A DNA stretch of 10,307 bases from Candidatus Pacearchaeota archaeon. Its GTDB lineage: Archaea; Nanobdellota; Nanobdellia; Pacearchaeales; GW2011-AR1. Made by a program: the position numbers and the translations under genes. Location: positions 222,207 through 232,513 of the forward strand of contig JBNLCO010000010.1 of the NCBI GenBank assembly GCA_050303855.1. Reading direction: 5' to 3'. Below are positions 1,994-7,249 of this stretch, piece by piece. Below the pieces are notes generated by a model. That model searched no databases and had not been told where the DNA came from. It saw nothing but the letters and a program-made list of their open reading frames with translations. Numbering within the stretch: position 1 is the stretch's first letter; every line of letters begins with the position of its first letter.

Positions 1994-2440
1994 TCAATTC
2001 TCCATTAGGATATTGTTTAATTCTATGAATCTAGCTTCTTTTTCAGCGAGTTCTTTCTCGTTTTCTCTAAGTTCTTTCTTAAGTAATGCTATATCTTTCC
2101 AACAATTGATCTTTTCATTAAGCTGGTGTTCTGAGATTTCTACCTTTTTGTTCCTTAGAGAATTCTTTTCTATAATTGGGTCTTTGTCTCCTAAAACTGC
2201 AGGAGAGTTCTCAATATCCAAAAGGAAGTTACTTATCTCTAGCTTTATTTCATCTCCTTCTCTTAGGAAGTTCTGACTAAGAATATTTCTTTCTTGAATC
2301 AACTTCTGGATTTCAGAAATTGTTCTTTTTAGGGAATTAACCTTATCTTGACCTATTGATCCAATAGAGTTGCCACTTGTGAGACTTGATATTTCGGGTC
2401 TTACCGCCTCTTCCGCATGGTATTTCATATTTTCCATCAT
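1994..2440 (-). CDS. hypothetical coiled-coil protein (148 aa), first gene of the minus-strand operon
   Basis: ORF in track. K/E-rich heptad-like sequence (ELRENEKELAEKEARFIELNNILMEN). Palindromic TTTATAAA box at 2459-2466, 19-26 nt upstream of its ATG at 2440, consistent with a leaderless archaeal promoter. Confidence 0.5.
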   Translation of the reverse strand: MMENMKYHAEEAVRPEISSLTSGNSIGSIGQDKVNSLKRTISEIQKLIQERNILSQNFLREGDEIKLEISNFLLDIENSPAVLGDKDPIIEKNSLRNKKVEISEHQLNEKINCWKDIALLKKELRENEKELAEKEARFIELNNILMEN

Positions 2441-2458
2441 TTCATAGTGATAACATAC

Positions 2459-2466
2459 TTTATAAA
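2459..2466 (-). promoter_or_regulatory. palindromic TATA box TTTATAAA for the minus-strand three-gene operon (leaderless)
   Basis: TTTATAAA lies 19-26 nt upstream of the ATG at 2440. The same octamer recurs at 4639-4646 and 4893-4900, at the same distance from other start codons. Confidence 0.4.
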
Positions 2467-2534
2467 TGTTTCTATTTAGTAGTTACTCTATAGTTAGTAC
2501 ATTATCTTAAATAAAACAGGTCTCCTAGTTTAGA

Positions 2535-3296
2535 ATGGGTGAGATTCAAGACAAAGAGATAATTTCAGAGTTATGTGGGGCAATAATTGGCGATGGGTGG
2601 ATCCAATCAAATGAGAGGTGTTTCTTTCTTGCAGGAGATCCTACAGAAGATAGAGATTACTATGATTCCCACATTCCAGAAATATTTAGAAAGGTTTTGA
2701 TAACTGTGACTCCAAAAGAATTCCCCTACTGGAGTGTCTATGGCATTTCAATATATAAGAAAGACATAATTCAGAAATTACTTTCTTGGAATATCCCCAA
2801 GGGCAAAAAAGTTGACACTGCAAGAATTCCAAACTGGATAAAGAAATCAGAGGATAAAGTTAAGAAAGCGTTCCTTAGAGGATTCTTTGATGCTGATGGA
2901 AGCATCTTCTGTCAAAAAGATTATACCAAATACGCGAAGGAATTTAATTCAAAACATCATGTTAAGGCTAGATTGAGAATAACAAGTATCTCAAGTAATC
3001 TTGTAGATGAAATGAAGGGAATGTGTGAGGAAGTAGGGTTTAAAGTAATAAGAAGGACAATTAAAAGAGGGAGAATAAGTGAACGTAATTGTAAAGATAT
3101 TCACATAATTGAGATAAATCATTTGGAGAGTATAAGGAAATGGTTTGAAGAATTGAAGCCCTCTAACCCCAAACACACTACAAAATATCGGATATGGAAG
3201 AAATTTGGCTTTTGTCCTCCAAAAACGACGCTAATTCAGAGGAAAGAAATACTTAAAAATGAATTAAGCCCTTATTCATTCTATATGCAGGAGTAG
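2535..3296 (+). CDS. double-motif LAGLIDADG homing endonuclease (I-DmoI-like architecture), free-standing
   Basis: Two LAGLIDADG-type motifs about 100 aa apart: ELCGAIIGDGWIQ (aa12-24, nt about 2568-2606) and FLRGFFDADGSIF (aa113-125, nt 2871-2909). Length 253 aa fits single-chain enzymes. A/T box TTAAATAAAA at 2507-2516 lies about 24 nt before the ATG. Stop codon TAG at 3294-3296 lies inside the tRNA-Leu gene. Confidence 0.75.
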   Translation: MGEIQDKEIISELCGAIIGDGWIQSNERCFFLAGDPTEDRDYYDSHIPEIFRKVLITVTPKEFPYWSVYGISIYKKDIIQKLLSWNIPKGKKVDTARIPNWIKKSEDKVKKAFLRGFFDADGSIFCQKDYTKYAKEFNSKHHVKARLRITSISSNLVDEMKGMCEEVGFKVIRRTIKRGRISERNCKDIHIIEINHLESIRKWFEELKPSNPKHTTKYRIWKKFGFCPPKTTLIQRKEILKNELSPYSFYMQE

Positions 3297-3370
3297 CGAA
3301 GTGGTCAAACGCGCAAGACTCAAGATCTTGTCTCTTAGTGAGTTCGAAGGTTCGAATCCTTTCTCCTGCA
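3287..3370 (+). tRNA. tRNA-Leu (anticodon CAA), class II with long variable arm, CCA not encoded
   Basis: Hand-folded cloverleaf. Acceptor GCAGGAG/CTCCTGC plus discriminator A. 3-bp D-stem GCG/CGC with a GG-containing D-loop. Anticodon stem CAAGA/TCTTG with loop CTCAAGA (U33, anticodon CAA, purine 37). Variable arm CTC-TTAGT-GAG. T-arm GGTTCGAATCC. Confidence 0.85.
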
Positions 3371-3466
3371 TAAACTTTATAAAGCCAAGATAATTCGGCA
3401 TTATACGACCTGCGAGTTAATCGCGTTAGCGGGGAAACATTTTTCTCGTTAATTGGATAATATAAA

Positions 3467-3838
3467 ATGATAAAATCAAAAACAAAGATATCGAAGCAAT
3501 TAGAAAGAAAAACTAATCCAGAATTAGTCGAAACAATACTATTAGCTAAGAAGAGTGCTTCTTGGTTAGAAATTGCATCAATCTTGTCAGGATCTAGAAG
3601 AAAGAGAATTAATATTAATCTAAGTGATTTAAGTAAAAGTATTGAAAGTGAGAAAATAGTTCTTATTCCCGGAAAAGTATTGTCTGAAGGAGAAATGGAT
3701 AAAAAAGCAAAGATTGTTGCCTTAAACTTCTCTGAAAAAGCAAAAGAAAAGTTGATAAAAGCTGGATGCGAAGTTTCAAGTATACTAGAGGAAATTAAAT
3801 CAAACCCTGAAGCTAAGGGTATTAAGGTGTTAAAATGA
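3467..3838 (+). CDS. rpl18e: 50S ribosomal protein L18e
   Basis: N-terminal ...KTNPELVETILLAKK..W..IASIL..SRRKRININLSDL pattern typical of archaeal L18e. About 123 aa. Followed by L13 and S9 in the conserved archaeal order. ATGA overlap with the next gene. Confidence 0.85.
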   Translation: MIKSKTKISKQLERKTNPELVETILLAKKSASWLEIASILSGSRRKRININLSDLSKSIESEKIVLIPGKVLSEGEMDKKAKIVALNFSEKAKEKLIKAGCEVSSILEEIKSNPEAKGIKVLK

Positions 3839-4224
3839 AGGTAGTTGATGCAACAAATTATCCAATGGGAAGACTTGCAAGCTTTGTAGCAAAAGAAGCT
3901 TTGAAGGGGGAAGAAGTAAAGGTAATCAATTGTAACAAAGTCTTGATAACTGGAAGTAGAGAATATGTTGAAAAAGAGTTCCAAGTTAGAAGGGGAAGAT
4001 ATGGAAGTTCTCAAAAAGGACCAAGAATTTCAAAATCAAACGAACAAATAGTTAAAAGAACAATAAGAGGTATGCTTCCAAACTTTAGAGAAGGAAAAGG
4101 AAGAGAAGCTTACAAAAGAATAATGTGTTATAATGAAGGTTTAGGTGAAGAAGTTAAAGAGATTGTAACTCTTGGAAAAAGAAAACCAAAGAAATCAATT
4201 AAATTAGAATCAATGAGAAAATGA
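3835..4224 (+). CDS. rpl13: 50S ribosomal protein L13
   Basis: MKVVDATNYPMGRLASFVAKEALKGEEVKVINCNKVLITG matches the conserved L13 N-terminus (IDA..LGRLAS.VAK.LL.GE.V.VVN). Translationally coupled on both sides by ATGA overlaps. Confidence 0.9.
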   Translation: MKVVDATNYPMGRLASFVAKEALKGEEVKVINCNKVLITGSREYVEKEFQVRRGRYGSSQKGPRISKSNEQIVKRTIRGMLPNFREGKGREAYKRIMCYNEGLGEEVKEIVTLGKRKPKKSIKLESMRK

Positions 4225-5862: not shown

Positions 5863-6417
5863 TTATTCAGAAATTTTTCTTCTTTTAGTTAAGGTATCTA
5901 GTTTATCTTGTACTTTATTAAATAATATTGAAGATACAATTGGTTTATGATCTGCTTCATGAATTTGACCATCAAATTTTATCTTTCCTATATAAGCAAA
6001 ATTTCTAAGTATTTTCTTTAAACCATTTACGGAAAGTTGGTGTTTTTTTGATAGTGTGTTTAAGTTCATTCTTGGTTGTAAGAACTCTTCGAATATTTCT
6101 TCTACCTCTTCATAGTTTTGAGCTGGAACTAAAACTCCTGAATCATGATTTCTTTTATACCCAAATGGTGCTCTAGACATGTGTAATCCTTTAGAAGATT
6201 TCTTTATCATCCCAATTTTTTGATTTTCCCCACGGAACTTAGAATATTTTCTTAAAGGTTCAAGATTCTTTTCAAGGATTTTTTCTTCAATATATACATC
6301 TAATTCTTCGGGAGTATTGGGGGAGAAAGTATGGCAAATACTACATAATGTTAGTCCAAACTTACTCTTGTTCTTATCCGAAACATACCCGCATTTTACG
6401 CATTTACTTTCATTCAT
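5863..6417 (-). CDS. zinc-ribbon + serine-recombinase 'recombinase-domain' protein lacking a resolvase catalytic domain
   Basis: N-terminal CxxC...CxxC (CVKCGY...CSICH). Central GLHMSRAPFGYKRNHDSGVLVPAQNYEEVEEIFEEF and ILRNFAYIGKIKF resemble the recombinase domain of large serine recombinases (PPfGYk ... iLtNpaYiG). No N-terminal resolvase catalytic Ser domain. Start overlaps the xerA-like stop by 8 nt, suggesting translational coupling. Confidence 0.6.
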   Translation of the reverse strand: MNESKCVKCGYVSDKNKSKFGLTLCSICHTFSPNTPEELDVYIEEKILEKNLEPLRKYSKFRGENQKIGMIKKSSKGLHMSRAPFGYKRNHDSGVLVPAQNYEEVEEIFEEFLQPRMNLNTLSKKHQLSVNGLKKILRNFAYIGKIKFDGQIHEADHKPIVSSILFNKVQDKLDTLTKRRKISE

Positions 6418-7249
6418 TTTGCATCAATCCATCTATAGGGGATTTTATTTTTTTTAATTGTTCCGTTGAAACGTGAGCGTAAATTTCTGTGGTCGCAAGG
6501 TTACTATGGCCAAGAAGAGTTTGTATAAATCTTATGTCTGTTCCATTTTCTAATAAATGTGTTGCAAAAGAGTGTCTTAAGGTATGGCAGTGAACATCTT
6601 TGTTTATTCCTGCTTTTTTTGCTGTATTTGAAACTATTTTTTGCATATTTCTAGGAGTAAGTTTTCCCTTTGGACCTGAGAAAATGTAAACTTGGTTGAA
6701 TTCTTTTTGATTTTTAGCACGATTTTTTAGATCTTCATATAAGAATTCGGGAATATTAAACATACGATCTTTCTTTCCTTTAGCTTGTTTTACATAACCT
6801 ATCTTATTATCAAAATCTAGATCATCTATTTTAAGACTAACCAGTTCTGAAACCCGAAACCCACAAGCATACATAAGAGACATCATTAACCTTGATTTCT
6901 TATTTGAAGCGACATCAAACATCCTTTTGACTTCTTCTTTTGTTAAAACTGCAGGGATTCTTTTTTCTCGTTTTGGTCTTTTAATACCTTGAGTTATATC
7001 TTTTTTTAGAATATTTGAATAAGCATATTTAATTGCGGATAAGAAAACAATCGTTGAACTTGAACTTGAATCAGATAATCTCTCAACTAAGAAAAGTTTT
7101 AGATCGTCTTCACTCATATCATCTGGTATTTTATTTGTAAATATGAATAATTCATTGTTTGCTCTTAGATAGTTTCTTAAAGTATAATTGGAATTTTTAG
7201 AGATCTTCAGTTCTATTTCAAGTTTTTTTAGAAATTCTTCTGGAGTCAT
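6410..7249 (-). CDS. xerA: tyrosine recombinase, XerA/XerC/XerD-like
   Basis: C-terminal catalytic motifs: GFRVSEL (Arg I), HTLRHSFATHLLENG (H-x-x-R box), LLGHSNLATTEIYAHV (catalytic Tyr). N-terminal core-binding-like region. 279 aa, the size of archaeal XerA. Confidence 0.88.
   Translation of the reverse strand: MTPEEFLKKLEIELKISKNSNYTLRNYLRANNELFIFTNKIPDDMSEDDLKLFLVERLSDSSSSSTIVFLSAIKYAYSNILKKDITQGIKRPKREKRIPAVLTKEEVKRMFDVASNKKSRLMMSLMYACGFRVSELVSLKIDDLDFDNKIGYVKQAKGKKDRMFNIPEFLYEDLKNRAKNQKEFNQVYIFSGPKGKLTPRNMQKIVSNTAKKAGINKDVHCHTLRHSFATHLLENGTDIRFIQTLLGHSNLATTEIYAHVSTEQLKKIKSPIDGLMQNE

Follow-up and report, generated by a model that had tools for sequence, protein, structure and literature searches.

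A stretch of 10,307 nt from a Candidatus Pacearchaeota archaeon (the window, to which all coordinates refer) carries an open reading frame (ORF) of 253 codons that runs into the 5' end of a chromosomal transfer RNA (tRNA) gene, tRNA-Leu(CAA). When this locus was compared with related ones, designated here by labels such as L003 or L134, the ORF appeared probably to belong to an active or recently active free-standing homing-endonuclease cassette of ~0.8 kb that targets the flanks of tRNA genes. Such a cassette would consist of its own promoter and the 253-codon ORF, and would have entered the chromosome of a Pacearchaeota-like DPANN archaeon within the short interval that separates the TATA box of tRNA-Leu(CAA) from its position +1. 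The elements concerned are the following:

2503-2516, plus strand: putative promoter of the endonuclease gene, with the TATA-like sequence ATCTTAAATAAAA ~20-30 nt upstream of the ATG, as read from the sequence.
2535-3296, plus strand: endonuclease gene, 253 amino acids plus TAG, with an ATG start (ORF listing; Pfam PF14528, 32.9 bits).
2568-2597, plus strand: LAGLIDADG motif 1, ELCGAIIGDG (residues 12-21), with the putative catalytic D20 at 2592-2594.
2871-2900, plus strand: LAGLIDADG motif 2, FLRGFFDADG (residues 113-122), with D119 and D121 within 2889-2897.
3147-3293, plus strand: C-terminal helical extension of ~45 amino acids past the LAGLIDADG core (conservation and helices of the model).
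3252-3260, plus strand: putative replacement TATA box of the tRNA, CTTAAAAAT, at -35 to -27 of tRNA +1, in codons L240-K241-N242.
3287-3370, plus strand: tRNA-Leu(CAA), complete, without intron and without an encoded CCA (Rfam tRNA model, ARAGORN).
3287-3296, plus strand: overlap of ORF and tRNA, 10 nt, the stop TAG at 3294-3296 being U8-A9-G10 of the tRNA.

Metagenome contigs were scanned with a pattern specific for tRNA-Leu(CAA), which yielded 80 loci. The endonuclease gene was found directly upstream of the tRNA in 14 of them and was absent from 62, the remaining four being too short to judge. With 62 of the 76 informative loci empty, gene and tRNA do not constitute a universally conserved core pair, and this explanation was rejected. 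Conserved synteny was also discarded as the cause of the association, as the pair was found in at least three contexts (before the L18e-L13-S9 genes, before SecF/SecD and after TFB) and empty tRNA-Leu genes likewise occur in several.

The insertion was defined by comparing the carrier locus L134 with the empty loci L130 and L167. Nucleotide identity is 91% on the rpoD side and 85% on the L18e side, the tRNAs are 100% identical, and the difference consists of a block of ~780 nt located between the native TATA box and tRNA +1. In the empty alleles, the rpoD stop codon is followed by GATATAAGAAG-TTTTTTATAT-CGATAATTAATGTTATTTATTACAG and then by the tRNA, with the TATA box at -36 to -27. The junction of promoter and tRNA of the L130 type reads ...TATATCGATAATTAATGTTATTTATTACAG on the promoter side and GCAGGAGTAGCGAAGTGG... 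on the tRNA side, and the empty site of the L130/L121 type reads TTTTTTATATCGATAATTAATGTTATTTATTACAG and GCAGGAGTAGCGAAGTGGTC on the same two sides. In L134, the sequence of the empty alleles continues through the native TATA box, which is kept as a relic (TTTTTTATCT), and then comes the cassette, in the order second TATA box (AAAAAGTTTTTATATTT), spacer of ~22 nt, ATG, ORF and a final ...ATACTTAAAAATGAGTTAGACCCATACATATTTTATAA abutting tRNA +1. The more distant L121, used as an outgroup, is empty and has the native promoter sequence common to L130; therefore, the empty state is ancestral and not a deletion scar. The first-pass annotation of this DNA had proposed, among other readings, that the gene homed into the region upstream of tRNA-Leu, and had suggested a check for an empty region in relatives; this reading is supported by the comparison of L134 with L130 and L167.

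As judged by the identity of the flanks, the empty L130 is nearer to L134 than the carrier L099 is. Carriers and non-carriers are thus interleaved, and this requires gain or loss by recombination. Homologues of the ATPase (71%) and of the 148-aa protein (61%) encoded upstream in the window were found in L145 at 113 nt from an unoccupied tRNA-Leu, which places the left junction in the window near 2500-2520. Neither direct nor inverted terminal repeats beyond chance flank the cassette, and a transposon-like insertion was rejected, the sole 10-nt direct repeat (at 2457 and 3374) consisting of two TATA-like boxes.

The position of the insertion raises the matter of how the tRNA is transcribed in the carriers. 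All of them show CTTAAAAA at -35 to -27 of the tRNA, without variation in its DNA sequence and at the exact distance occupied by the native TATA box of the empty alleles. In the window and its relatives this motif lies within codons, and 12 carrier genes (median amino-acid identity 60%, with two pairs near-identical) were compared at these positions. L240 was encoded by CTT in all 12, where CTT makes up only 24% and TTA 54% of the leucine codons of these genes, and K241 by AAA in all 12, whereas the third position varies in the other invariant leucine and lysine columns. The same TATA motif is present in the neighbouring clades at tRNA-Leu(AAG) and tRNA-Leu(GAG). Where the ORF of a member stops earlier, the TATA box is in the short spacer, members from bacteria of the Candidate Phyla Radiation (CPR) have -10-like TATAAT or TATAAA boxes, and in some subfamilies, for example that at Thr-GGT, the 3' end of the ORF has no obvious TATA box. 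A sister clade of the Leu-CAA group (L005, L006, L007, L012, L015, L016 and L019; 34-43% identity), in which neither an adjoining RNA gene nor CTTAAAAA was detected, shows the peptide motif RKxIL[SK]G without the corresponding DNA motif. Finally, L079 is a truncated remnant in which only the last ~46 codons persist, with an in-frame stop TAG, and it still keeps the TATA motif and the tRNA. The invariance of synonymous sites, the match in distance, the absence from the sister clade and the retention in L079 point to a dual role for the 3' end of the ORF, as coding sequence and probably as the promoter of the tRNA.

These same data bear on the alternative that ORF and tRNA form a single transcription unit, from which RNase P frees the tRNA, so that CTTAAAAAT would reflect codon and protein constraint only and the overlap would be a device for expression or attenuation. 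The 10-nt overlap, the lack of a spacer and the lack of a terminator-like site between ORF and tRNA (in a scan for sigma-70 promoters and terminators, uninformative for an archaeon) are consistent with this proposal, as are the subfamilies without an obvious TATA box; furthermore, a cut at tRNA +1 would strip the stop codon from the mRNA and could hold the endonuclease at low levels. Against it, co-transcription alone does not account for the synonymous invariance of L240, with a minority leucine codon, and of K241, the distance coincides exactly with that of the native TATA box of the empty alleles, and this segment was retained in L079 after loss of the rest of the gene, while the clade without a tRNA neighbour retained the peptide and not the DNA motif. 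As a replacement for an embedded promoter, a single unit is thus quite improbable; it is compatible with such a promoter as an additional layer, and it may hold for the subfamilies that lack the TATA motif.

With respect to the promoter of the endonuclease gene itself, L134, L099 and L140 share a conserved stretch of ~45 nt before the ORF, AAAG(T/A)TTTTTATAT...TTTAGA-ATG, and differ further upstream. The spacing of ~20-30 nt between the upstream TATA box and the ATG would result in a leaderless or nearly leaderless mRNA. In L083 (6753-7443), the endonuclease gene heads an array of tRNAs (Leu-CAA, Pro-CGG, Arg-CCT and Gly-TCC), so the embedded promoter may drive several tRNAs there.

The limits of the tRNA determine the extent of the overlap. 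ARAGORN placed them at 3286-3371 and the Rfam model at 3287-3370 (61.7 bits, full length, model positions 1-71). The former were dropped, since GCAGGAG at 3287-3293 pairs perfectly with CTCCTGC at 3363-3369 as a 7-bp acceptor stem, leaving A3370 as the discriminator, so that the 5' end of the tRNA is at 3287, upstream and not downstream of the stop codon. The stop had previously been assigned to the inside of the 5' acceptor stem; TAG does lie at tRNA positions 8-10, but just past the stem, which comprises positions 1-7. Lacking its own stop codon, the ORF continues into the tRNA and ends on the near-universal U8-A9-G10 (UAG). An identical 10-nt overlap was found in L003, L004, L079, L082 and L083, and many close homologues terminate in ...YKQE or ...YKRG plus stop, which is the translated 5' end of the tRNA; thus, the overlap is conserved. 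The only match in an Rfam scan of 2300-3600, even at E<=1, was the tRNA, with no group I intron or other family. A gene encoded in an intron or an intein was rejected: no intron family was found in Rfam, the tRNA is contiguous, the gene has its own ATG and no extein, and the insertion with respect to the empty alleles is outside the mature tRNA.

The stand-alone, double-motif ORF of 253 amino acids is present as first annotated, from its ATG to its TAG, and its assignment to the I-DmoI-like LAGLIDADG enzymes was confirmed at several levels. With hidden Markov models, it passed the cut-off of PF14528 (LAGLIDADG_3; 32.9 bits vs. 22.5) and fell slightly under that of PF00961 (LAGLIDADG_1; 22.2 vs. 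23.1 bits). A profile built from 87 homologues matched, among solved structures, I-Tsp061I (2DCH, E=7e-9) and the endonuclease domains of inteins. The AlphaFold2 model obtained with the alignment of the 87 homologues reached a predicted local distance difference test score (pLDDT) of 93.3 and a predicted template-modelling score (pTM) of 0.90, and contains the alpha-beta-beta-alpha-beta-beta-alpha fold twice. Its best Foldseek matches in the PDB were I-Tsp061I (2DCH, E=6e-9, target-normalised template-modelling (TM) score 0.76), intein endonucleases and I-DmoI; PI-SceI was matched also.

Both LAGLIDADG helices end in an acidic residue, GDG (D20) in the first and DADG (D119 and D121) in the second, as in the single-chain, pseudo-dimeric type. 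The retention of these residues, already noted in the annotation, extends to the family, as D20 and D121 are conserved in at least 90% of the 87 homologues and D119 is invariant or conserved in at least 90%. Double-strand cleavage dependent on Mg2+ and leaving 4-nt 3' overhangs is a trait of the class and is predicted for this protein. In two otherwise intact homologues these positions differ: the catalytic D121 of motif 2 is replaced in P0048 (FDTGG), and D119 is replaced, with D121 retained, in P0091 (VDCDG). These two proteins may be nickases or inactive DNA-binding forms.

The C-terminal extension is highly conserved, with the consensus NPKHxTKYxIWKKFGFCPPxTTxxQRKxILKNxLxPYxxY, and is modelled as helices 212-224, 233-240 and 246-250 with pLDDT values of 96-98; it matched no Pfam family. 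No NCBIfam model was found for this endonuclease family either, and its members are annotated as 'hypothetical protein' in public records. With a threshold of E<=1e-3, an exhaustive search of 1.84 billion cluster representatives yielded 1252 clusters, and with E<=1e-10 it yielded 295; most of the 150 best matches listed are 240-280 amino acids long, the size of a free-standing protein rather than of an intein. The close homologues (52-72% identity, 250-255 amino acids) belong to DPANN archaea of the Pacearchaeota/Woesearchaeota type.

To what extent the location beside an RNA gene is general was assessed in 80 loci from GTDB species genomes, which encode relatives with 23-62% identity, 67 of them as intact ORFs, in DPANN archaea of several phyla and in CPR bacteria. 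An RNA gene was detected by ARAGORN and Rfam within 100 nt of the 3' end of the ORF for 44 of these 67, compared to 25 of the 470 other ORFs of the same loci, the figure of 44 being an undercount. Most of the adjoining RNA genes are tRNAs on the same strand that are entered by the ORF; convergent tRNAs, one signal recognition particle (SRP) RNA and upstream tRNA or 5S ribosomal RNA (rRNA) genes were also found. In metagenome loci, two distant paralogues stop short of a tRNA by 3-4 nt. As a control, 50 distant LAGLIDADG loci on viral contigs were inspected, and none had a tRNA within 3 kb. A viral vector was considered and rejected, as the IMG/VR contigs hold only distant relatives (22-33% identity), none of them near a tRNA.

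Some individual loci of this survey deserve a separate description. In L033 (5729-5930) and L024 (5630-5830), the reverse complement of a tRNA 3' end follows right after the stop codon of the ORF (TGGTGGGCGAGGTGAGATTTGAACTCAC... and GGGCCCCGTGAGATTTGAACTCAC..., respectively); both resemble convergent tRNA genes interrupted by large or multiple introns, missed by ARAGORN and by the Rfam gathering threshold. The intron-containing tRNAs called by ARAGORN in L013 and L020 were unconfirmed by Rfam and were set aside as doubtful. In L018 (5001-6077), an archaeal SRP RNA gene converges on the ORF, with its 3' end 5 nt from the stop codon, and in L008 (4672-5601) and L002 (573-1639) the ORF is preceded by a 5S rRNA gene at a distance of 90-220 nt. 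The CPR relatives L041, L042 and L055 (titled Moranbacteria, Parcubacteria and Taylorbacteria), L062, L071 and L077 show 24-28% identity and lie flush with tRNA-Ser(CGA), tRNA-Tyr or tRNA-Ser(GGA), with TATAAT or TATAAA in the last 25 nt before the tRNA; therefore, the habit of lying at tRNA flanks crosses the divide between archaea and bacteria. The titles of some records (Gammaproteobacteria, Bdellovibrio, Methanosarcinales) may result from mis-binning.

In a neighbour-joining tree, the proteins group by the adjoining tRNA (Leu-CAA, Arg-TCG, Ile-GAT, Thr-GGT, Ala-GGC and, in CPR bacteria, Ser-CGA), and the Leu-AAG and Leu-GAG clades are next to Leu-CAA. Related enzymes are found at related tRNAs, and since the flanks upstream of such tRNAs would not be expected to resemble each other, this grouping suggests that the tRNA sequence is part of the recognition site.

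The endonuclease is under strong constraint, as deduced from the ratios of nonsynonymous to synonymous substitution (dN/dS) of 0.07-0.14 obtained between carriers, with synonymous divergence (dS) of ~1.1, near saturation. Degenerate copies were found nevertheless: besides the remnant L079, L008 is a frameshifted and truncated copy, and both match the cycle of gain, decay and loss that is expected of a mobile endonuclease gene.

Strong purifying selection over saturated synonymous divergence could also be the mark of a domesticated host factor, that is, an immobile protein binding DNA or RNA with sequence specificity at its own tRNA gene, for instance as a regulator similar to WhiA or as a factor for tRNA-Leu expression. 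Its fixed position, its conserved and confidently folded 45-aa C-terminal helical extension, the alignment of the full-length model with WhiA (8dy9_I, TM 0.60) and the fact that the divergence of the gene roughly tracks that of its flanks are all in line with this possibility, which the first-pass annotation had also raised. It is disfavoured, and we consider it unlikely, because the gene is sporadically distributed and close relatives with an identical tRNA show clean empty sites, because L079 and L008 are degenerate, and because, unlike in WhiA, at least 90% of the members retain the metal-binding acidic residues in both motifs. Moreover, paralogues lie at many tRNAs, in either orientation, and also at SRP RNA and 5S rRNA genes, and such a number of RNA-gene partners fits better with the choice of a target site than with a dedicated regulator. 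The purifying selection could still be a sign that some members are on the way to a host role beside their own tRNA gene.

The degenerate copies, together with the lack of close relatives on viral contigs that could act as vectors, might alternatively be taken as signs of an inert relic, inherited vertically from an ancient insertion and now neutral, decaying and without present activity. This is very unlikely in view of the intact ORFs of 250-255 amino acids in dozens of lineages, the dN/dS of ~0.1 and the conservation of the catalytic residues.

For a homing cassette at the tRNA flank, the following sequence of events can be proposed. The enzyme would cleave the intact promoter/tRNA junction of the empty alleles, through a recognition site that would include the first bases of the tRNA gene, and the cassette would be spread by repair of the double-strand break. 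By splitting the recognition site, the insertion would protect the carriers although their tRNA is unchanged; as this tRNA is the same in carriers and in empty alleles, self-immunity must rest on the disrupted upstream half-site. The insertion would also part the tRNA from its native TATA box, and the one embedded in the last codons (I-L-K-N) would restore its transcription, whereas the upstream TATA box of the cassette would direct the short-leader or leaderless mRNA of the endonuclease, whose translation would terminate on U8-A9-G10 of the tRNA. More speculatively, if RNase P cut read-through transcripts at +1, the stop codon would be removed from the message, and this might limit the synthesis of the endonuclease.

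Several observations weigh against this proposal. A dN/dS of ~0.1 over saturated synonymous sites exceeds the constraint expected for a purely selfish immobile gene. The 14 occupied and 62 empty loci are not independent events, as many of the 76 are near-duplicates from related samples. The right-hand junction can be resolved only to -17 to -1, because the spacer is AT-rich, and the upstream half-site on which immunity would depend is poorly conserved between lineages. In addition, L134 and L099 are 82% identical in the gene and 86% and 78% in the flanks, so gene divergence roughly tracks that of the flanks, and much of the distribution is explained by long vertical descent, the gene being lost occasionally through recombination. 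The L140 gene is 81-82% identical to those of L134 and L099, with 75-76% in the flank, by which horizontal transfer is weakly indicated. Taking these points into account, an active or recently active cassette is still the probable explanation.

Whether the same holds for the family as a whole is more tentative, and the following generalization has a somewhat less than even chance of being right. The free-standing LAGLIDADG elements of DPANN archaea and CPR bacteria would constitute a class specialized in the flanks of tRNA genes, and sometimes of SRP RNA or 5S rRNA genes, with one tRNA for each clade. Their insertion sites would lie between promoter and tRNA or just past the tRNA on its 3' side, and they would carry a substitute promoter within the ORF and borrow U8-A9-G10 as a stop codon. 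On read-through transcripts, this codon would be removed by the RNase P cut at +1, so that translation and tRNA maturation would compete, and some of the elements could be part-way to a host role.

Regarding the surroundings of the cassette in the window, the genes 3' of the tRNA encode L18e, L13 and S9, an archaeal ribosomal-protein operon according to the Pfam scan. Upstream, three divergent genes are on the minus strand. They had been described as an ATPase operon sharing a divergent promoter region with the endonuclease gene; this holds for the third one, truncated (1 to ~1370), which encodes a P-loop ATPase of the HerA/DUF87/Zot type, but not for the two nearest (1994-2440 and 1416-1976), which have no Pfam match. 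In many relatives (L134, L130, L121 and others), tRNA-Leu(CAA) lies between rpoD and L18e in the classical archaeal S13-S4-S11-rpoD-L18e-L13-S9 cluster. The upstream rpoD is replaced by the divergent operon of the HerA-like ATPase in the window and by rpoN plus a deacetylase gene in L082; therefore, the region upstream of the tRNA is a rearrangement hot spot.

The 10-mer ACTTTATAAA occurs in the window at 3374-3383, directly 3' of the tRNA, and at 2457-2466, just upstream of the divergent 148-aa gene. Both copies resemble archaeal TATA boxes, and they are probably the promoters of the L18e operon and of the 148-aa gene, respectively. An antisense ORF, also of 253 amino acids (3253-4014, minus strand), overlaps the tRNA and the L18e gene and has no family match; it is most likely a chance ORF in AT-rich DNA. 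Further downstream (5863-7249, minus strand) lie two genes with an 8-nt overlap, one for a 184-aa protein that combines a zinc ribbon and part of a 'Recombinase' domain (PF07508) and the other for a 279-aa tyrosine recombinase of the Phage_integrase (XerA-like) type. They may represent the remnant of a mobile element or the dimer-resolution system of the chromosome, and a Recombinase-domain gene is also found at the corresponding place of L082.

Homing endonucleases are thought to persist in essential conserved genes through self-splicing introns or inteins. The arrangement described here suggests a third route to harmlessness, in which the element sits just outside a conserved RNA gene, recognises part of it and brings a replacement promoter. 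If true, many 'hypothetical proteins' encoded beside the tRNA genes of ultra-small archaea and bacteria would be explained, and a set of natural meganucleases would be at hand with targets readable from the empty alleles. It would also flag those ORFs that annotation pipelines extend into tRNA genes, provide a clear case of dual constraint, coding and promoter, on one stretch of DNA, and turn the gating of selfish-gene expression by tRNA processing into a testable question.

Among known systems, the closest in profile and structure are I-Tsp061I (PDB 2DCH) and I-DmoI, monomeric double-motif LAGLIDADG homing endonucleases of archaeal rRNA introns. They have in common with the present protein the two-domain LAGLIDADG fold and the acidic residue at the end of each motif, but they are encoded within bulge-helix-bulge rRNA introns, whereas the present gene is free-standing in the promoter spacer of a tRNA; they also lack the ~45-aa C-terminal helical extension, and identity is 14-19%. 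In location, the nearest parallel is provided by SegB, in the tRNA gene cluster of phage T4, and SegF, free-standing, intergenic, phage-encoded enzymes of the GIY-YIG family that spread by 'intronless homing'. As with the Seg enzymes, a stand-alone gene lies beside tRNA genes without the buffer of an intron or intein, and its spread would be expected via co-conversion of the flanks. In contrast, the present gene encodes a LAGLIDADG protein, resides in cellular chromosomes (DPANN and CPR) between promoter and tRNA, has a substitute promoter embedded in its ORF and ends on a stop codon supplied by the tRNA. A third comparison is with WhiA, a bacterial transcription factor of LAGLIDADG-endonuclease descent, encoded by a conserved core gene, which no longer has the catalytic residues. 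In both proteins, a pair of LAGLIDADG-like domains precedes a C-terminal helical domain, and only this overall architecture is similar, as the present family retains the acidic residues, is sporadic and leaves remnants.

Thus, both the type of enzyme and the existence of free-standing genes beside tRNAs (SegB) were already known, while the large family of LAGLIDADG genes at tRNA flanks is apparently undescribed. No description of such genes in DPANN or CPR genomes was found in the literature, the coverage of which was incomplete, so that this amounts to absence of evidence only. What would be new is a chromosomal LAGLIDADG family of DPANN archaea and CPR bacteria systematically located at tRNA flanks, in which the promoter is replaced and the stop codon is provided by the tRNA. 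The tRNA introns of Patescibacteria have been reported to be mostly without endonuclease genes, with no mention of flank-located ones in that report (PMC13011429). In CPR bacteria and DPANN archaea, LAGLIDADG genes have been described within rRNA insertions or group I introns (PMC6125680; reference 33 of PMC13011429). Those genes coincide with the present family in the host groups, in the Pfam families and in the choice of conserved structural-RNA genes as targets, but they lie inside the RNA gene, in an intron that is spliced or self-splicing, whereas the members of the present family lie outside the mature RNA, flush with its 5' or 3' end.

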